A stretch of 64,000 nt of DNA from Nitrospirota bacterium (lineage in GTDB: Bacteria > Nitrospirota > UBA9217). Both the position numbers and the translations under genes were made by a program. This document shows positions 4,760 to 23,607 of this stretch, piece by piece. Position 1 is the first letter of the stretch. Every line of letters starts with the position of its first letter. Where the stretch lies: contig CAWFSF010000005.1 in NCBI GenBank assembly GCA_963818475.1, positions 192,001 through 256,000 of the forward strand, written 5' to 3'. Below the pieces are notes generated by a model that searched no databases, was not told the origin of the DNA, and saw only the letters and a program-made list of their open reading frames with translations.

Positions 4760-5575
4760 TCAATTGTTCGGGCAGCAATTAGGATTTCCGCAGCAAGGGT
4801 CGCCACAGCAGGGGTCATTCCCTAAGCCTTCATCGGTCCATCCGTTGCAGTTGTTATCCAAGCCGTCACATATCTCCTGCTGTGGCAACTGCTGATTCTG
4901 ACACGTTCCCCACTGGCCGTTCGAGCATGTCTTGCTCCCCTGCCGACAAATGCCAACGCCGGCCGTACCGACGGGACCTTCATAGCAGGCACTGATCTCG
5001 CCGTTCGAACAATTTCCCCCGGCGCGAAAAGTGAAAATCTGATCCGTTATGTATCCAGGGCTGCGGATAGACATGGAGCCACAATTCGAAGGAAAGTTCG
5101 TTTGGCAACAGCCTGCTCCGTATATGTCCTGCAAATAAAATCTGACGGTGTGCAAACTGCCCGACGTAAACCCGGTTATACCCGTCGTGACAGAAAATCC
5201 CTGCTCAAGTCCCAGTTGGTCCCCATATACTGATATGGATACCTCTGAGAGAAACCCTTTATACACTCCATCAATTTCATAATGAAGCTGAGCCCTCGTC
5301 CCTGCTCCTTGTACCGGATTATAATCCCAGGGCTGTAACCCTTGCAGCGACCAACCCGGATTACAGGGCGCCCCGTTTGGGATCATCGGGTTAAAGGTCT
5401 GCTGTGGGGCGGAGTCCTCGGTCAACGTGTATCTTCCTAAAATAGTAAAAAACGATGTGGCTACGTAGTCGGACGCCGGAGAATTAACAGTAATAATTCC
5501 GTTGGCGCCCCATGAAAACGCGGGGGGGAGGATAGCAACAAAAATCAATAAAAGATTCAGTATTCTATTCAACAT
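4760..5575 (-). CDS. secreted Cys-rich protein with MopE-related/putative metal-binding motif
   Basis: Signal peptide; EICDGLDNNCNG motif; C-terminal DPCCGDPCCGNPNCC. Confidence 0.75.
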   Translation of the reverse strand: MLNRILNLLLIFVAILPPAFSWGANGIITVNSPASDYVATSFFTILGRYTLTEDSAPQQTFNPMIPNGAPCNPGWSLQGLQPWDYNPVQGAGTRAQLHYEIDGVYKGFLSEVSISVYGDQLGLEQGFSVTTGITGFTSGSLHTVRFYLQDIYGAGCCQTNFPSNCGSMSIRSPGYITDQIFTFRAGGNCSNGEISACYEGPVGTAGVGICRQGSKTCSNGQWGTCQNQQLPQQEICDGLDNNCNGWTDEGLGNDPCCGDPCCGNPNCCPNN

Positions 5576-15024: not shown

Positions 15025-17040
15025 TTATTGCTCAGGCTGCTTTCTCTTTGTCATAATCTTTGAAATCTCGCCGCTGATCTCACCGACGTCATAGGGTTTA
15101 CATACCACTCCGCAGAAACCGTATTTTTCATATTCGGCCATGATGGGGTCCCTTGAATAGCCGCTCGAGACGAGGACCTTTGCATCAGGAGCAAGCGCTT
15201 GAAGGCTCTTGACGGCGTCTTTGCCTCCCATCCCGCCGGGAATGGTCAGATCCATGATCACGACATCGAAAGGGTTCTGTTCACTCTCTGCCTTCAGGTA
15301 TACCGCTATCGCTTCCTTGCCGTCCCTGGCATATTCCACAACATACCCAAGCTCGCTGAGAATATGGCCGGCAACATCTCTTACCAATTCTTCATCATCC
15401 ATGATAAGGATCTTCCCTTGACCTGCCTGAACTGATTTCACTTCCTGGGTCACCGGGGAGAGCGTGTCCCTCAATGCGGGAATATATACGGTGAATGTCG
15501 TGCCGGCCCCTGCTTTTGATTCAACGGAAATTTTCCCGTCGTGCCGGTTGATGATGGATAAAACCGTGGCAAGACCCAACCCGGACCCGTTCGTTTTTGT
15601 CGTGAAATACGGTTCAAATATTTTCGGCAAATGTTCTTCCGGGATGCCTGTTCCCTCGTCGCGGAACGTGATCTTTACATAATCGCCTGCTTTGAGCGAA
15701 GCGGCGTTGTGTTTTTTCACGACTGCGTTTTCAAAAGCCAGATGAACTGCTCCCCCCTTCGGCATGGCATGGACTGCATTAATGATCAAGTTGTTGAACA
15801 CCTGGCTTATCTGGCCCCGGTCAACCTCGGCGCTCCAGAGGGACGCGGGAACGGTATGAAAGCATTTAATATTGGAGCCCGACATCGCAAACGTGCTCGC
15901 CTCCCTGGCAATGTCAAGGAGCGATGCGGGTTTCTTTACCGGGGCGCCGCCCCTGGCAAACGTCAGCAGCTGCTGTGTCAGGTCGGCGGCCATTTTAGCC
16001 GCCTTTTCCGTTTCAATAAGCCTGGCGAATGATCGGTGCTCGGCACCAAGCTGCATCTTCACCAGACTGACGTTTCCCAGGATGGAGGTAAGCAGGTTGT
16101 TAAAATCATGCGCCAGTCCGCCTGCAAGCAAGCCGAGCGATTCTATCTTCTGGATCTTTTGCATCTCCTGTTCCATGCGATATTGCGCCGTGACATCGCG
16201 GAATACGAGAACGATCCCGATGGTCTTGCTGTGCTTGTCCTTGATCGGCGCGGCGCTGTCTGCAATGACTATCTCGGTTCCATTCTTTTTTATGAGCGCA
16301 GTATGATTGGCCAGACCGACGATCATCCCGGATTTGAGGACCTTCTCCACGGGATTTTCGCATTTTTCTCTCGTGTTTTCGTTGATGATGTTGAACACCT
16401 CGGTAAGCGGTTTTCCCAGGGCCTCTTCATTCGTCCAGCCGGTGAGCTCTTCACTTACTTTGTTGAGCAGCGTGACATTGCCGTCGATATCCGTGACGAT
16501 GACCCCGTCGCCAATGCTTCTCAAGGTTACCGCCAGACGCTCCTTTTCAGCAGCTATCGCGTCTTCCGCTTTTTTCTTCTCCGTGATGTCGCGCGTTATC
16601 CCGAGTAAAGCCGTGATCCCATCCTTTTCATTACGGAACGGAACCGCACGGGTTTCAAGCCAAAGGCGCCGTCCTTTCAACCCGACCATCTCGAAGGTGA
16701 ATATTCCTGACCCGCCGTTGCATACGTCCCTGGTCAGCTTCATGAAGTCGTCACGATACGCTGAAGTAACAAGAGGACAGACGCATTTCCCCTTGACCTG
16801 TTCGAGCGATTCAGCCTCGATCATGTTCAAACCCGCTCTATTCATGAAGATCAGGTTTCCCTCGGCATCTATTATCTTTACACATTCCGGCTCTGTTTCG
16901 ATAATGGAGTTCGAAAGATACTCGCTTTGTTTCAGCTGCTCCTTCATCTTCAAAAGATCTTTGTTTATGCGGAGGATGGAATAATGCCTCCACCCGGCCA
17001 TAAGAACAATGAGGATAATTACAAAACTGATATGTTCCAC
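15025..17040 (-). CDS. PAS-PAS hybrid sensor histidine kinase with receiver domain
   Basis: AHDFNNLL H-box, NLIINA, DEGTGI, GSGLGL, C-terminal REC (MDLTIPGGMGG). Confidence 0.93.
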   Translation of the reverse strand: MEHISFVIILIVLMAGWRHYSILRINKDLLKMKEQLKQSEYLSNSIIETEPECVKIIDAEGNLIFMNRAGLNMIEAESLEQVKGKCVCPLVTSAYRDDFMKLTRDVCNGGSGIFTFEMVGLKGRRLWLETRAVPFRNEKDGITALLGITRDITEKKKAEDAIAAEKERLAVTLRSIGDGVIVTDIDGNVTLLNKVSEELTGWTNEEALGKPLTEVFNIINENTREKCENPVEKVLKSGMIVGLANHTALIKKNGTEIVIADSAAPIKDKHSKTIGIVLVFRDVTAQYRMEQEMQKIQKIESLGLLAGGLAHDFNNLLTSILGNVSLVKMQLGAEHRSFARLIETEKAAKMAADLTQQLLTFARGGAPVKKPASLLDIAREASTFAMSGSNIKCFHTVPASLWSAEVDRGQISQVFNNLIINAVHAMPKGGAVHLAFENAVVKKHNAASLKAGDYVKITFRDEGTGIPEEHLPKIFEPYFTTKTNGSGLGLATVLSIINRHDGKISVESKAGAGTTFTVYIPALRDTLSPVTQEVKSVQAGQGKILIMDDEELVRDVAGHILSELGYVVEYARDGKEAIAVYLKAESEQNPFDVVIMDLTIPGGMGGKDAVKSLQALAPDAKVLVSSGYSRDPIMAEYEKYGFCGVVCKPYDVGEISGEISKIMTKRKQPEQ

Positions 17041-17340
17041 GGTAACGGCTCCTTTGGGGAGGGATTTTTGAAAATATACGTTTTGCAGGTTTTTTTGCAG
17101 CTCATAACCGCTGAGCTAGGCTGGCCTGGAACCATTCTTGTTCATCGGAGGATATCACAGAAAATCGCTGAAAGTAAAGGGATTATGTGGAGGTGTGGAG
17201 CGGTCCGGCGCGAACTATGGAGTCAGCGGATTTCCGCGGTTTGCGGGATTGTCGGCTTGTTCGGTTGCCGGCAGCTCACGACGGCCTTCAATGGGAGGCG
17301 GAGTTGGAGGGCTTTCCTGATCACAAAGACGCTTTCATAT

Positions 17341-17460
17341 TCAATCGACCTCGCACCCTTTGTCCCGAAGTGCTTTGAAGACCCCGGCGAGATGTTCCCT
17401 CCCGCGGACTTCGACGGTAATGACTACCTTTGTTCTGCCGATGGGCACGTCGCTGTCCCT
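17341..17460 (-). pseudogene. C-terminal remnant of an ACT-domain threonine dehydratase
   Basis: Reads RDSDVPIGRTKVVITVEVRGREHLAGVFKALRDKGCEVD*, resembling the ACT tail of TdcB/IlvA-type enzymes; no start codon, cut off by the terminator. Confidence 0.55.
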
Positions 17461-17472
17461 GATGAGGGAACG

Positions 17473-17509
17473 AAAAAAGCCGGCAGGGACCTCGACCCCT
17501 GCCGGCTTT
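17473..17509 (-). terminator. intrinsic terminator of the structured RNA
   Basis: GCCGGCAGGG-loop-CCCTGCCGGC followed by TTTTTT on the minus strand. Confidence 0.8.
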
Positions 17510-17529
17510 CGTTATTGACAATAAATTAC

Positions 17530-17823
17530 GGCGTTGCTTTGGACCCGCATCTTAATCATACCGTTGATCCTCGGGATATTCGGTAGGAACGATCACTTCG
17601 AAGATCTGCTCTCGCAAATCCTGAGATGGTTCGTTTCCTTCCGAATTCTCCTTCGGCCTCCGGGGCTTTCCGCTTACCAATCTCTGGTGACCTGCAAACC
17701 GGCAGTGTAACAATCCTCACGGACTGCTGTTTGCCGTTTCCGGATCACGCCTGGTTGGGCTTAAGGCCCTCAACGAAAGTTAAGGATACGTTTAACACTT
17801 CTCAGTGTCGGTCCGGCAACGCC
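17530..17823 (-). ncRNA. unclassified ~294-nt highly structured non-coding RNA
   Basis: Closing helix GGCGUUGC/GCAACGCC plus GGACC/GGUCC; several GNRA-capped hairpins with G-U pairs; -10 box upstream, terminator downstream; no credible ORF. Confidence 0.7.
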
Positions 17824-17831
17824 TTACTGTT

Positions 17832-17861
17832 AGTATACCTCCCTTTGTCAAGCGGTGACAT
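17832..17861 (-). promoter_or_regulatory. promoter-like element for the structured RNA
   Basis: TATACT ending 8 nt before the 5' helix; ATGTCA at 18-nt spacing and a perfect TTGACA at non-canonical 8-nt spacing. Confidence 0.45.
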
Positions 17862-17982
17862 TGAGGATGTGCAAGGGGAAACAAAAAAGCCATCACCTTG
17901 CTGGTACTTTAGTCGAACTTGTTTAAACTCGTTGCCGATCTCCCCTCCGGCAGGTATCGGTGATCGTTGGCGCATGCGTTCT

Positions 17983-18729
17983 CTAACCGGCTTTCCGCAT
18001 CCTTTCCGCCTCGCGCTCGCGTATCTTTGAATCGATAAGCCCCTGAAAGCGCATCGCCAGTTCCGGCCCTTTAGCCCCCTCGCCTTCGTGCTTAAAGAAC
18101 ACGAAGGCACGCTCCCATTTCTGCGCCAAGATCATTTCCACCCATTGCGACAGATCAGCGTCCGTGTAATCGGAGCGGCGCAGACGCAGGTATCCCCAGT
18201 CCGCCGTACTGACGATCTCCGTCGCCGGGTCCTCATCAGCATCGGCGATGCACAGGCTGCATCCCTTTTTCCGCAGGAGGTCCAGGATCGGTCCGTCGAG
18301 CCAGGATGCGTTGCGGAACTCGAATGCGCATGACGCCACCTCGGGGATAAGAGCGAGCATTTTCTCCAGCGCTGCCGCGTTCGCGGGAAAGGTCCTGGGA
18401 AACTGAAACAGGACGGGCCCCAGCTTCTGGTCCAGCGTTGCCAGAGACCTGAAGAGGTATTCAATTTCCGAACCCACGTTCATCAGCCGTTTCCAGTGCG
18501 TTATCACCTGGGGAGCTTTGAGCGCAAACACAAACCCGTCCTTCACCTGTTCCGCCCAGGAACCGAGCACCTTTTCTGTAGGCATGTGATAAAAGGTGTT
18601 ATTGATCTCCACCGTGTTGAGGCGTTCACTGTAAGCGTGAAGCATCTCTTTGGGAGAGATTTTCTCAGGATAGAATGCCCCCTTCCATTCTTTGTACGAG
18701 TATCCGCTGGTGCCGACGTGGACTTTCAT
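17983..18729 (-). CDS. DUF72 domain protein
   Basis: VGTSGYSYKEWKGAFYP, VEINNTFY, GPVLFQFP, YLRLR motifs. Confidence 0.92.
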   Translation of the reverse strand: MKVHVGTSGYSYKEWKGAFYPEKISPKEMLHAYSERLNTVEINNTFYHMPTEKVLGSWAEQVKDGFVFALKAPQVITHWKRLMNVGSEIEYLFRSLATLDQKLGPVLFQFPRTFPANAAALEKMLALIPEVASCAFEFRNASWLDGPILDLLRKKGCSLCIADADEDPATEIVSTADWGYLRLRRSDYTDADLSQWVEMILAQKWERAFVFFKHEGEGAKGPELAMRFQGLIDSKIREREAERMRKAG

Positions 18730-18957: not shown

Positions 18958-20567
18958 TTAAAATGACTTACCATCTCCCACGGTCTTCTCCCGCATCACA
19001 TCGCGGGCGCTCTTATCATCGCGCATTCGCAGGAAAACGGGCTGTCTCATGACAGCATCCGCAGTCCAACCGGTAAAACCAACCTCGCAGACCAGCTCCG
19101 GCTTTACCCAGGTGACCGGGGCATTGGTCTCCGGCTTGACGCTGAGCGGGCTTTCTTTGCGGATCAGGGGCTCCAGTTGTTCGCGAATGTCCTTTAACAT
19201 TTTCGAGGTGAAGCCCGTTCCCACCGAACCGATCGGGACCAACGCGTCCCCTTCATAGGCGCCCAGGACGAGGCTGCCGAAATATTTTCTGCCGCCCCCC
19301 GCTTCCGTGAAGCCCGCGATCACTCCCTCCTGCGTCAGCCGCGTCTTTATCTTCAACCACTGCCCGCTCCTTCTGCCCGCCTCGTAGGTGCTTTGGCTAT
19401 GCTTCGCAATGATCCCTTCCAGCCCCTTTTCTTTGGCGACCCGGTAGAACAAGCACGCCCTCTTTCGCCACGTGATCGCTGAACCGTATCCGCGGGTCGG
19501 AGGGAAGTATTTTTTTCAGGACCTCTTTTCTCCTGAGAAGAGGCAGGTTCGTCATATCATGTCCCTGAAAGTAGAGGAGGTCGAAAACAGAGTAGAGCAG
19601 GTGGCCCTTTCCGGAATCCTGGTAATTCTGCAGCGCCTGGAAATCAGGCCGTCCCTCGTCATCCACCACGACGACTTCGCCGTCCAGCACAGCGTCAAAT
19701 CCTAATTTCCGCAAAGAGTCCACAACAGGAGAAAACCTTTTGTTAAACGATAGATCCGTTCCGGGAATAGAGCGAAACGTCCTTGCCCCGGATCTCGGCA
19801 ACAGCCCGGTATCCGTCCCATTTCACCTCAAAGATCCAATCCGGATGATCGAACGGTTCCCTGGCCACGGTCGCGAGCATCGGCTGCAGAGCGTGCGGCA
19901 TTGGTTTGGCCGGTGCATCCTTCAGGCCTTCGCTTTCCATGGCTTCGTGAAGACGGATCTGGTTCATTTTTTTTTGCTGGAAGGACCTCTCCGGAACCGC
20001 TTCGAGCATCTCCTCCAGCGTTTTATGGGACACCACGGAGCGGTTTTGCGTGAGGATGTCCCCTTTGGCAGGGTCACGGTCTTTTTTCTTCAGAAGAAGC
20101 CACGACTTCCCGTCCTTTCCGGTTTTCACCAGCGCAAATTCACCGTGCAGCTTTTCCCCTTCGAGCACGAACTTCAAATCCCCTTTTCTGAGGCCCTCCA
20201 GAAGCAGTTTCTCGTTTTCATTCTCATCTCGTGCCAAAGGGTGGTGATAAAAACCCCGGTCCCAGATGATGACGCTTCCTGCGCCGTAATTGCTTTCCGG
20301 AATAACGCCCTCGAAATCCTTGTACTCCAGCGGGTGGTCTTCGACCATGACCGCCAGCCTTTTCAGGGAAGGATCGAGCGAAGGGCCCTTAGGCACGGCC
20401 CAGCTCTTCAGCACCCCCTCGAGCTCAAGCCTGAGATCATAATGAAGCGCCCGGGCCGCATGCTTCTGAACAACGAATATGCGACGGCCCACCTCTGGCC
20501 GAAGGCCTGGCTCCGGTTCGGGTGTTTTCTCGAATTTGCGCTTTCCTGTATATTCAGTCAATTTCAT
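18958..20567 (-). CDS. ligD: NHEJ DNA ligase D: 3'-phosphoesterase plus ATP-dependent ligase plus OB domain (frameshifts near 19745 and 19455)
   Basis: FVVQKHAARALHYDLRLE...SWAVPKGPS; EVKWDGYR; LDGEVV; EGIIAK; WVKPELVCEV...MRQPVF. Confidence 0.9.
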
Positions 20568-20730
20568 GACAACTGCCTCGTTTTATTACCACGGAGTCAC
20601 GGAGAGAGAAAAATCTGAAGTTCCGAAAAGAACGACTGTAACGCCCACTGGCTTCAGATGTGCTATAGTTACCTGATTTCTGCCTTTGTTTCGCGGTTTC
20701 TCCGTGCCTCCGTGGTCATGTTTAATTGCA

Positions 20731-21625
20731 TTACAAATGCGGCAGCTTCTGTTCTTTCACGAGCACCTCATGAAAAAGGTCGCCCATTCTTTCTGCCCTG
20801 CGCACAGCTTCCGAATGCATGATCTGAAGCTTTTCCGGGTCTCCCCTCTCCAGGTCCTCCCATGCAAGCGGGAACGAAACAAATGGTTTTTCCCTGGCAC
20901 GCAGGGAATAAACGCAGATCATGGTCTTCGAAGCGTCGTTCTGAGACCAGTTGATAAAAACCTTAGCTGTCCGGTATTGTTTCGCCATCTTCGCGGTCAC
21001 CAGGTCCGGATAATGTTTTTGCATGATCTCTGCCACGGCCTTTGAAAATATCTTCGTATCATCAAAGGTCGTCTCTTTTCGATTCAACGGAACAAAAGCA
21101 TGGAGCCCTTTCTTGCCCGAGGTCTTTACAACACTGAAAAGTCCCATGCGGAAGAGCAGGTCCCGAAGTATCAGCGCCACTTTGGCGCAATCCAGGATGC
21201 CCGCCCCATCTCCGGGATCCAGGTCGAAGACCATGGAATCGGGCGTCTCCGGCGATCATTGCCCTGGCCAGCGGCACGTGAAGCTCAAGGGCCGCAAGGT
21301 TCTCCGCCCAGATCAGTGTTTCCAGATCATTGACCAGGCACTGCGTCATCGGCTTTGCATCGCCATGCACGACCTCCGCTGTTCTCACCCATTCCGGACG
21401 GTGCGAAGGACAGCGTTTCTCGAAAAAGGAACTTTTTCCCACTCCTTCCGGATAGCGGGTAAACGTCACGGCCCTGTCTTTCAGATGGGGCAGCATGAAC
21501 GGCGCGATCCCGCGATAGTACTCCAGGATCTGAGCCTTCGTGAAGCCATGGGAGGGATAGAGGTCTTTTTCCAGGTTCGATAACGGGAGCCTTCTCCCGG
21601 CCATTTCAACGAATGTCCGGCTCAT
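20731..21625 (-). CDS. stand-alone LigD polymerase (primase-like) domain (frameshift near 21250)
   Basis: LSNLEKDLYP, RYPEG, FFEKR, VFDLDPG, KTSGKKGLH, FINWSQN, YSLRAR. Confidence 0.9.
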
Positions 21626-22407
21626 CGATGCTCCTTCACTTTCTGCATGCTCTCTTCAAGCGCGGCGACCAGATCGGCCGGGCCTTCTCCCTCTTCTTCC
21701 GCCAATACAGGCGCCTCAACGGTCGCCTGCTCTTTTGCCTTCTGCTTCAGGAGGTCCATGATCCTTGTCCTGCGCTCGTTCGCATATTTCCCCGGCTCAA
21801 AGTCATGCATCATGTCCTTTATGCTCTTGACTATCCGCGTTTCTTCTTCAGCCTCGATCGTGCCTTTCTTCGGCGGGATGTCTTCGTGGAGAAGTATTTC
21901 GTCGCTGTAATGAAGGGTGATCAGTTCCAGCGCTCCCTCCCTGCTTATGACCGTCACCAGATATTCACGCTCGGCCAGCACGAATTTTGCCAGCCCGGCC
22001 TTGTTCGTCCGGTTCATCACCTCGACCAGCAGCTGATACGCTTTTTCTCCCCCTTTCGCGGGAACGAGATAATAGGGGTGATCAAAATAGATCGGGTCTA
22101 CTTCCTTCAGATCGATGAATTCAAGGATCTCGATCGTACGGCTCCGCTCCGGGGACAAGGATTCCAGTTCCTCGTCCGTCACCAGGACGTACCGGTCCGG
22201 CGCTGTCTCGTATCCCCTGACGATCTCGTCCGGGGGTACCAGCGTTCCCTCTTCCGGACAGAACATTTTTCGCGAGAGACGGGAGTAGTCCTTGGTGTGG
22301 AGCAGATGAAAGGAGACCCGCCCGGGTTCGAGGGCCGTGACCAACCGGACCGGTATCGCCACGAGGCTGAAACTGATCGTCCCGCTCCATATTCCCTGTA
22401 CGGCCAT
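21622..22407 (-). CDS. ku: Ku protein (NHEJ), paralog 1
   Basis: IWSGTISFSLVAIPV, IDLKEVDPIYFDHPYYL, DLVAALEES. Confidence 0.93.
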   Translation of the reverse strand: MAVQGIWSGTISFSLVAIPVRLVTALEPGRVSFHLLHTKDYSRLSRKMFCPEEGTLVPPDEIVRGYETAPDRYVLVTDEELESLSPERSRTIEILEFIDLKEVDPIYFDHPYYLVPAKGGEKAYQLLVEVMNRTNKAGLAKFVLAEREYLVTVISREGALELITLHYSDEILLHEDIPPKKGTIEAEEETRIVKSIKDMMHDFEPGKYANERRTRIMDLLKQKAKEQATVEAPVLAEEEGEGPADLVAALEESMQKVKEHR

Positions 22408-22613
22408 GGCATGCCTCCTGGTTGACGATATCTAAAGATACAACACCTTTGACACGGATCACGGCGGATAAGAGCCTGATAAGGTCGGATTCTTATCTGT
22501 CTTCGATTTTCATCCCCCTGATCAGACGTCCATCCGACCCTATCCGTGTCCAAAGTTTTTCCTGATCTCTCCTGCGTCCTGTGTGCGAATTATCCTTAAC
22601 TCGGGTCTTCCCC

Positions 22614-23387
22614 TCAGGCAGCTTTCTTCAGGCTCGCTTCAAGAGCCTGAAGCAGCTTGTCTGATTCCGTCGGTCTCAGTTGCCTGGGGGGCAGGACCGC
22701 GATCTTTTCTCCCCGTGCTTTTTTATCGATCATGAACTGCAGCTTCTTCTGATGCTCGTTCTGGAATTTGCGCCGGTTCAAAAGGAACGGTCAACTGGTC
22801 GATCAACTCGCTCCCGATCTTCAGTTCTTTCTCCGACAGGGGAACATGCTCCAGGGCGAGGGATCCCACGGATACCACTTCGTCGGCATAGCGCAGGGTG
22901 TTCAGGCGAAGGATATTCCCGCTCGCTTGCAAGGCCCCGAGGATAGGACCGTTTTCTCATGGTCCAGGTGCAGATGCCTGCCACGTCCATCTCCTGCAAC
23001 GCCTTGACCAGTGCAGTATATCCTTTTGCCCGGACATCCGGCTCCAGGTAGTAAACGCGAGCAAGGAAGAGCGGGGTCGATCTGTTCCACTTTGACGAAT
23101 TCGTGGACCTCGATCATGCGGCTGCTTTCCGATGCGGTCTGTTCGAGCTCCTCCGGATCGACCAGGATATATTTCCCCTCCTCCAATTCAAACCCCTTGG
23201 TTTGTTCTTCCGCCGGCACCGGCCGATTTTCATAGGCACAGATCATCTGCTGGCGAAGTCTCACCCGGTCATGTTTGTGAAGGAGGTGAAACTGGATCCG
23301 CTCCTCCCGTACCGCGGAATGCAGCTTGACGGCCACGTCCGTTTCACCAAAATGGATATTCCCTTTCCAGATCGTTCCCGCAGCCAT
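22614..23387 (-). CDS. ku: Ku protein (NHEJ), paralog 2 (several frameshifts)
   Basis: TIWKGNIHFG..VAVKLHSA, IQFHLLH, KGFE, LNTLRYADEV; ends LKKAA*. Confidence 0.85.
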
Positions 23388-23607
23388 TGAAGTTCCTCCG
23401 TATCCCATCCTTTAATTGGGACTGATACTATCTTCTATGTAAAGGATATCACCGGATAGCGCAGGCGTCAACGGTGCGCCGGTCCGTTCCCTGATAGGAA
23501 AGTTGCAGCGGTGAAAGGCCGGCCTCCCCTCGCCGGTTTGACTCCCTGCGCGGAAGGGGCTACCTTTAACGGTAGGTAGAAAAAATGATCTCGAAAGGAG
23601 GAAGGAT

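Follow-up and report, generated by a model that had tools for sequence, protein, structure and literature searches.

A structured RNA gene on the minus strand

Positions 17530-17823 of a 64,000-nucleotide (nt) stretch of DNA from a Nitrospirota bacterium (contig CAWFSF010000005.1; the whole stretch is called the window below) hold, on the minus strand, an independently transcribed structured non-coding RNA gene of about 295 nt, which is a paralogue in a previously undescribed RNA family. Read on this strand, the sequence is GGCGUUGCC...GGUCCAAAGCAACGCC. Its minimum free energy is -122.9 kcal/mol, whereas dinucleotide shuffles of the same sequence give -85.4 ± 5.1 kcal/mol (z = -7.31, with none of the 200 shuffles folding as well). 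The fold of the plus strand is weaker (z = -4.40). Two open reading frames (ORFs) of 53 and 54 amino acids (aa) lie inside the RNA. They are open and in frame in just one of 20 close homologues, which rules out a coding gene.

The paired strings quoted in an initial annotation, which had been made from the letters of the window alone, are all found on the minus strand of this segment, including the GGCGUUGC/GCAACGCC ends, GGACC/GGUCC, CGUAUC/GAUGCG and the internal hairpins. The TATACT box 8 nt upstream and the strong U-tailed terminator about 20 nt downstream are also where that annotation had placed them (Table 1). At the -10 position the homologues carry TGTGGTATAnT, which is of the extended -10 type, and a TAnnnT begins 9-20 nt upstream of the initial GGCG in 29 of 55 copies. 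The spacing between the TTGACA box and the -10 box is not that of a canonical -35 element, and the box is best described as putative. The composite motif TTGACA-N4-KTGNTATANT occurs once in the whole genome, at the core copy described below only. Hence, it is not a common stable-RNA promoter in this genome, and its reading as a general promoter motif was rejected. The terminator hairpin begins 20 nt past the last C of the RNA body, and a homologous GCCGGCAG hairpin is present 3' of many other copies. With a promoter, a terminator, no conserved ORF and compensatory change in its helices (see below), the element has what characterizes an independently transcribed bacterial structured RNA gene.

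Consensus secondary structure

An 80-pair consensus was obtained with RNAalifold from a model-aligned set of homologues, and its helices are numbered according to the window RNA (Table 1). The RNA adopts a Y-shaped fold with a long closing stalk (P1, P1a, P3, P3b and P4), a small side hairpin P2, and two arms, 5' and 3'. In the model-fitted alignment of 57 distinct sequences, 88.3% of the cells are paired and double changes are seen in 67 of the 80 pairs. The total of 382 compensatory cells compares with 125.9 ± 10.2 in shuffled alignments, none of 500 of which reaches 382, and with 65-98 when the pairing partners are slid. An alignment of 45 distinct sequences made with MAFFT only, which gives its own 71-pair consensus, behaves in the same manner: 83.5% of the cells are paired, double changes occur in 54 of the 71 pairs, and there are 236 compensatory cells compared to 95.7 ± 9.7 in shuffled and 90-105 in slid controls.

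The helices differ in how they vary. P1 is invariant in sequence and never covaries, and P4 is nearly invariant, whereas the helices of the arms covary freely. P1 and P4 have a CGUUG/CAACG core in common. Short paralogues of 229-249 nt are devoid of the distal part of the 5' arm. A U-rich run directly follows P1 on the 3' side in 44 of 55 copies, counted over all gene layouts, and the window copy has GUAAUUUAUU at this place.

The pairings put forward in the initial annotation were compared with the 57 distinct sequences. The pairing of the ends (P1), the CGUAUC/GAUGCG helix (P3) and the GACACU-GAGA-AGUGUU hairpin (P2) are all part of the consensus, and the AGCAGUCC/GGAUUGUU hairpin is 84% paired with 48 compensatory cells. 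The AGGAUUUGC/GCAGAUCUU helix is retained near its tip, where the consensus keeps pairs 204-209/216-221, but its full 9 bp are just 58% paired (31 compensatory cells), and GGACC/GGUCC is weakly supported at 68% paired with 3 compensatory cells. Three further hairpins fell away, namely CUUAAC-UUUC-GUUGAG (67% paired, 0 compensatory cells), CCG-GAAA-CGG (82% paired, 1 compensatory cell) and UACCG/CGGUA (64% paired). Their strands form the long-range helices P4 and P8 instead. The proposed CUUAA/UUAAG pseudoknot is in fact P3b, which prolongs P3 in a nested manner. Of the four GNRA loops that had been noted, three cap supported hairpins, but they are poorly conserved across the family: a GNRA sequence is found at these loops in just 15 (P2 loop), 11 and 24 (tip of the 3' arm) of the 57 sequences.

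Table 1. Features of the window RNA gene and its transcription signals
Feature	Positions in the RNA	Positions in the window	Strand	Observation
RNA body, 294 nt, GGCGUUGC to GCAACGCC		17530-17823	minus	Fold z; full-length model matches; family boundaries coincide with these ends
P1, 5' strand GGCGUUGC, 3' strand GCAACGCC	1-8/287-294	17816-17823 with 17530-17537	minus	98.2% paired, 0 compensatory cells, sequence essentially invariant (57 sequences)
P1a	12-14/279-281			RNAalifold consensus
P2, side hairpin GACACU-GAGA-AGUGUU	16-20/25-29	17794-17809	minus	79% paired, 25 compensatory cells
P3 (CGUAU) and P3b (UUAA/UUAA)	34-38/274-278 (P3)	17779-17790 with 17546-17558	minus	P3 91% paired, 33 compensatory cells
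P4, UCGUUGA/UCAACGG	48-54/257-263	17770-17776 with 17561-17567	minus	90% paired, 18 compensatory cells
5' arm (P5-P9)		17663-17769	minus	P9 is a hairpin with a GUGA loop
P5, GGGC/GCCC	55-58/158-161			
P6	64-71/142-152			RNAalifold consensus
P7, GUGAUC/GGUCAC	76-81/132-137			53 compensatory cells
P8, AAACGG/CCGGUU	85-90/122-127			92% paired, 21 compensatory cells
P9	96-101/110-115			48 compensatory cells
3' arm, long irregular hairpin tipped by GCGAGAGC	168-255	17569-17656	minus	Consensus fold
-10-like box TATACT		17832-17837	minus	Ends 8 nt before the first G of the RNA
TTGACA box		17846-17851	minus	8 nt upstream of the -10 box; kept in close copies and several core-type copies (see text)
Intrinsic terminator, GCCGGCAGGGG-loop-CCCUGCCGGC then U6		17473-17509	minus	12-bp GC-rich hairpin, -28.2 kcal/mol, z = -4.96

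Distribution and copy number

The initial annotation had regarded the RNA as an orphan. On the contrary, the source genome contains four paralogues, and the RNA is a near-universal, mostly single-copy gene in one family, equal to a whole order, of uncultured Nitrospirota. BLAST revealed a second copy in the source genome (86% identity) and copies in 15 of the 64 genomes of the taxonomic family. A covariance model built from 20 close copies (R1) finds the RNA in 56 of these 64 genomes, and a second model built from 46 mostly divergent copies, 12 of them metagenomic (R2), finds it in 63 of 64, comprising 32 of 32 high-quality genomes and 19 of 19 genera. The single genome missed by R2 is 68% complete. 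According to R2, there is one copy in 40 genomes, two in 12, three in 8, four in the source genome and five in 2. Within the source genome the paralogues are at most 86% identical.

Neither model finds the RNA in any of 123 genomes from 21 other families of the phylum. A pattern scan of the genomes of 185,579 species returned 114 stretches, of which nhmmer confirms 20 hits in 17 loci, the rest being chance matches. The records of the confirmed loci are titled Nitrospirota or Nitrospirae, except for one titled Betaproteobacteria, and no copy was found in the Desulfobacterota, which the initial annotation had proposed to search. In metagenomes, at least 16 loci are real among the 119 matches listed. 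Two pattern scans of viral contigs gave 15 and 5 matches, and none of the 20 matches the family profile at E ≤ 1e-3. Read by eye, the first 15 are GC-rich, apparently coding DNA with several identical copies. A phage or plasmid origin was thus ruled out. Within the space covered by these searches, the family is seen nowhere else.

The Betaproteobacteria record (locus L061) carries two copies, at 2110-2411 and 5214-5502, and it is the sole carrier not labelled Nitrospirota or Nitrospirae. As its label is at odds with those of all other carriers, the contig may be mis-binned. Tandem arrays occur in several genomes and metagenome contigs. Two or three diverged copies, in tandem or nearly so and about 80-100 nt apart, are found at L029 (11695-12883), L290 (1592-2315) and L300 (4353-5028), and at L169 (3633-5241) the spacing is 1.3 kilobases. 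In a genome of the same genus, a truncated copy consisting of the last 93 nt (90% identity) is joined directly to the 3' end of a DUF72 gene (L012, 1501-1592). Since that locus is syntenic with the window, the 5' 200 nt were deleted there.

Two gene layouts and their neighbours

The copies of the family come in two layouts. In copies of the window type, TTGACA-N4-GTGGTATAnT precedes the RNA, the -10 box ends 7-8 nt before GGCG, and a separate terminator hairpin of the GCCGGCAG type follows. In copies of the core type, a -10 box of the same kind (TGTGCTATACT or TGTGGTATAAT) is located 55-70 nt upstream, so that the transcript should begin with a leader of about 50-60 nt, and a U-run follows P1 directly. 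Within this leader, GAUCUUUGAAA or GAUCUUUCUAAA is conserved and makes up the 3' strand of a small hairpin. The fourth copy of the source genome, located on the same contig outside the window, has the core layout.

A divergent gene with Chorismate_bind and Anth_synt_I_N domains (TrpE/PabB-like) is present at 22 of the 33 loci with copies that are not of the window type, a count in which one pair of loci may belong to the same genome. At 20 of these 22 loci the stop-to-stop frame of the gene lies 55-137 nt, typically about 100 nt, from the 5' end of the RNA. In one relative, three tandem copies stand beside the TrpE/PabB-like gene and the copy farthest from the gene is of the window type, an arrangement that points to duplication of the core gene as the origin of the window type. 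The ancestral copy is the core one, which lies divergently next to the TrpE/PabB-like gene, and we infer that the copy in the window is a duplicate that sits at a different locus and lacks the leader.

A divergent position relative to the target gene is common among regulators. The RNA might accordingly regulate the TrpE/PabB-like gene and control chorismate-derived biosynthesis, as the divergent arrangement at short distance spans many genera and includes the core copy of the source genome. We nevertheless consider this role improbable. The window copy and many other paralogues reside elsewhere, the carriers all belong to one family in which the synteny may be inherited rather than selected, and an ornate fold of 300 nt exceeds the usual need of such a role.

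Two observations concern the interval around the core copies. At the core copy of the source genome (L340, 1959-3483, contig C5) the TrpE/PabB-like gene is read as two overlapping ORFs, one of 236 and one of 325 aa, where a single ORF of about 520 aa is usual; the cause may be a frameshift or else a mistake in the assembly. A conserved GGTCAAGACAATTCT stands some 115 nt upstream of core-type copies, in the interval that separates the promoter of the RNA from the divergent TrpE/PabB-like gene (for example at L171, at L158 and at 3520-3540 of L340), and it may be the promoter of that gene or an operator.

On the same strand as the window RNA, the upstream neighbour is a DUF72 gene (17983-18729) and the downstream neighbour a PAS/HisKA/receiver hybrid kinase gene (15025-17040), whose start is about 490 nt past the RNA and about 430 nt past the terminator. 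Across the copies, the downstream gene encodes now a PAS histidine kinase, now a GGDEF-EAL protein, a protein with a phosphoribosyltransferase domain or something else. The RNA has the size and the conserved junctions of a large riboswitch aptamer, and a cis-acting leader of the downstream gene would look similar in these respects. Such a leader would have to act across a -28 kcal/mol terminator and the long gap to the histidine-kinase gene; furthermore, the downstream gene differs from copy to copy and the RNA also occurs in tandem arrays. The own terminator and the varying downstream genes rule this interpretation out, and the probability that we would still assign to it is minimal.

Close copies have no flanks in common, and the neighbours of dispersed copies are unrelated. 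The variable flanks, terminal inverted repeats of 8-9 bp (GGCGTTGCC...GGCAACGCC), a total length near 300 bp, up to five copies per genome and tandem arrays speak for a selfish or mobile repeat, which could resemble a miniature inverted-repeat transposable element or be a guide RNA orphaned from a transposon nuclease. Such an origin is very unlikely. The RNA is single-copy in 40 of 64 genomes, synteny is seen for its core copy at 22 of the 33 loci, the paralogues of the source genome have diverged as given above, and compensatory changes maintain the helices of a multi-branched fold. The predominance of single copies, the synteny and the compensatory evolution rule the mobile repeat out. Moreover, the promoter and the terminator are conserved outside the repeat, the flanking ORFs scanned contain no transposase, IscB or TnpB-like gene, none of the viral pattern matches is real, and there is no HEARO match.

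A cluster of upstream ORFs is common to L009, L017, L020 and L026 on both strands, and it is not a repeat. Elsewhere in the window, the minus strand of 18958-23408 contains two ORFs, 21622-22407 and the shorter 22902-23408, which by eye, from their translations, we take to be Ku-like. Beside them are what appear to be pieces of an ATP-dependent DNA ligase D, a name likewise presumed from the appearance of the sequence, in five overlapping ORFs (18958-19452, 19397-19801, 19743-20567, 20731-21234 and 21062-21625). The ligase D-like gene may be frameshifted or may contain assembly errors.

Comparison with described RNA families

The window was compared with the 4227 models of Rfam 15, which include RNase P, 6S, tmRNA, SRP, raiA, OLE, ROOL, GOLLD, HEARO, CsrB and Y RNA. 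At the gathering threshold there is no match over the whole window. With permissive filters and E ≤ 10, region 17300-18100 gives eight weak matches and none of them is on the RNA body: seven are on or around the terminator hairpin and the downstream flank, and one (mir-204) is upstream at 17824-17897. At seven related loci with divergent copies, no Rfam match falls on the RNA at E ≤ 0.1. The initial annotation had suggested an undescribed class of RNA, to be supported by an empty Rfam search together with covarying homologues. Both are found here, the covariation being far above the shuffle and slide controls in two alignments. The RNA family matches no described family. Full-text literature searches turned up no account of such an RNA from Nitrospirota. 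In the main texts of PMC11109978 and PMC8632094, whose supplementary motif lists could affect the claim of novelty, there is no occurrence of words beginning with Nitrospir, of Thermodesulfovibrio or of Leptospirillum.

The canonical housekeeping RNAs are found elsewhere in the genome, all above their cut-offs: RNase P class A (278.3 bits), 6S (87.6 bits), tmRNA (189.6 bits) and SRP (72.9 bits). RNase P RNA could be dismissed as the identity of the element, as the canonical class A copy is at another contig position and no RNase P match falls on the window RNA. The same is true of 6S RNA, whose canonical copy lies elsewhere and whose rod-like fold differs from the three-way branched Y of this consensus. 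It is conceivable that the Rfam models miss a member of a described family (RNase P, 6S, SRP, tmRNA, raiA, HEARO or another) that has diverged strongly, since lineage-specific divergence can defeat covariance models and the universality of the RNA within its lineage is reminiscent of housekeeping RNAs. With the four housekeeping RNAs accounted for and with the window RNA and its divergent relatives equally devoid of matches at the relaxed thresholds given above, the chance of this is slight.

Two protein-dependent RNA types were considered next to these. CsrB/RsmY sponges resemble the family in their variable copy number, tandem paralogues and frequent GGA triplets in a purine-rich RNA. However, they are simple strings of hairpins rather than a covarying multi-junction fold, and the partner is missing: CsrA (PF02599) is found in none of the 28 genomes of the carrier family searched (27 and the source genome), compared to 85 of 123 genomes of other families in the phylum. 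A sponge of the CsrB type was therefore excluded. As all carriers are kin, this anti-correlation of CsrA and the RNA, exact in the genomes sampled, counts as one event. A YrlA-like Y RNA was likewise excluded, as the source genome, which is 91% complete, has no match to the Ro/Rsr (TROVE) protein (PF05731), whose gene is usually a neighbour of such RNAs, and no Y RNA match was obtained at E ≤ 10. Hfq is encoded in the genome (canonical copy at position 811252 of contig C6) and could bind the U-tail, which would be a generic interaction. Three tandem Hfq-domain matches, one with an in-frame TGA, are also seen at 1477240-1477997 of contig C6.

More informative are the likenesses to large or abundant structured RNAs. 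6S RNA is an abundant, stable, trans-acting RNA with paired ends and sometimes with paralogues, which acts by binding a protein; the fold of the present RNA is branched and not a rod with a central bubble. The raiA motif RNA, an Rfam family of Bacillota and Actinomycetota, is reported to be a stand-alone, very abundant structured RNA gene whose function is still unknown (PMC10861870, PMC11706538, PMC12968392). The two resemble each other in being stand-alone genes for a structured RNA of a few hundred nt conserved across a lineage. Unlike raiA, to which there is no match at E ≤ 10, the present family belongs to a different phylum and to a single family rather than to thousands of species, and it has a Y fold with an invariant terminal stem, paralogue expansions and tandem arrays.

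At about 300 nt, the window RNA is about half the size of ROOL, GOLLD and OLE or less. Like these, it is an ornate, covarying, non-coding RNA with many helices. OLE, ROOL and GOLLD are reported to form homo-oligomers, as seen by cryo-electron microscopy (PMC12286853), and OLE works in a ribonucleoprotein (RNP). In contrast to them, the present family has no link to phages or plasmids and no adjacent genes resembling oap, and no Rfam match connects it with any of the three.

Expression

Contigs that match the window at 80-95% likeness come from four metatranscriptome libraries, one per study (sediment, ice and freshwater sediment), and they fall within 17526-17814 only. None falls in 17400-17518 or 17825-17900, flanks that are not conserved and that contigs of relatives at 80% likeness or more would not match. 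One run contains 38 such contigs with a summed word depth of up to about 2600. The DNA and RNA sequencing runs screened contained small shares of the words, at most 0.26. For the habitats of these four libraries only, the contigs hint that the RNA is expressed in sediments and ice.

Proposed role

The contrast between an invariant P1, a nearly invariant P4 and neighbouring helices that covary, with CGUUG/CAACG in both P1 and P4, may point to a stalk whose sequence is recognized. In our tentative reading, which we hold to be plausible but somewhat short of an even chance, the RNA is a stable, abundant, trans-acting scaffold that binds a protein. The invariant stalk helices P1 and P4 would be sequence-specific docking sites for the protein partner, and the resulting RNP would function in the manner of 6S, SRP or OLE RNAs. 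The arms would give the particle its shape, and the extra paralogues might tune its dosage or specificity. As a whole, the explanation that combines a new RNA family with such a scaffold appears to us reasonably probable.

Several points weigh against this explanation. The structures were derived from the same alignments on which covariation was counted, and the alignment fitted to the model (A6, fitted to R1) has an inflated paired percentage for that reason. Since the sequences are related, the excess over shuffles is not a probability. The metatranscriptome contigs are those of relatives, so that the bare flanks are no evidence of absence of transcription there. Assembled contigs cannot show the ends or the level of a transcript, and DNA may be present in RNA libraries. 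None of the protein genes near the copies is a constant neighbour and no candidate for the partner emerged. The adjacency of the TrpE/PabB-like gene at 22 of the 33 loci may simply reflect synteny inherited within a single family. Finally, the invariant helices could equally be kept for tertiary RNA-RNA contacts, oligomerization, catalysis or processing.

This last point leads to an RNA that does without a dedicated protein, either a ribozyme or a self-assembling homo-oligomer. The size, the branched fold and the conserved nucleotides of the junctions and the stalk are typical of such RNAs, and the core common to P1 and P4 makes strand-swapped or intermolecular pairing possible on paper. No partner gene is found among the flanking genes, and the reported homo-oligomers mentioned above set a precedent. 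However, a conserved palindromic loop was not found in the family, in which the CUUAAG of the window copy is not kept, the GNRA loops are poorly conserved, and the RNA is much smaller than ROOL, GOLLD and OLE. We thus consider an RNA-only machine unlikely, though the foremost competitor of the protein-binding scaffold.

Significance

To our knowledge, large structure-conserved bacterial RNAs of unknown function are rare, and each of those that we know to have been studied so far (RNase P, OLE, raiA, ROOL and GOLLD) exposed unexpected biochemistry. The narrow range of the present family, which is confined to one family of one phylum, limits the general reach of the finding. Within this range, the RNA bears the marks that are usual for an important cellular role and not for a passenger: universality in its lineage (63 of 64 genomes), apparent expression, an invariant stalk with covarying arms, and expansion into paralogues and tandem arrays. 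With about 300 nt and a well-supported secondary structure, it is tractable in vitro even though its hosts are uncultured. A bolder idea, which is possible but in our estimate rather doubtful, is that the RNA joins RNase P, 6S, tmRNA and SRP as a fifth "housekeeping" RNA, effectively essential and spread over the whole lineage, and that it is the first member of a new class of large structured RNAs with a catalytic activity or a new RNP core. If this were true, the RNA would serve a biochemical function that other bacteria lack or fulfil in another way.

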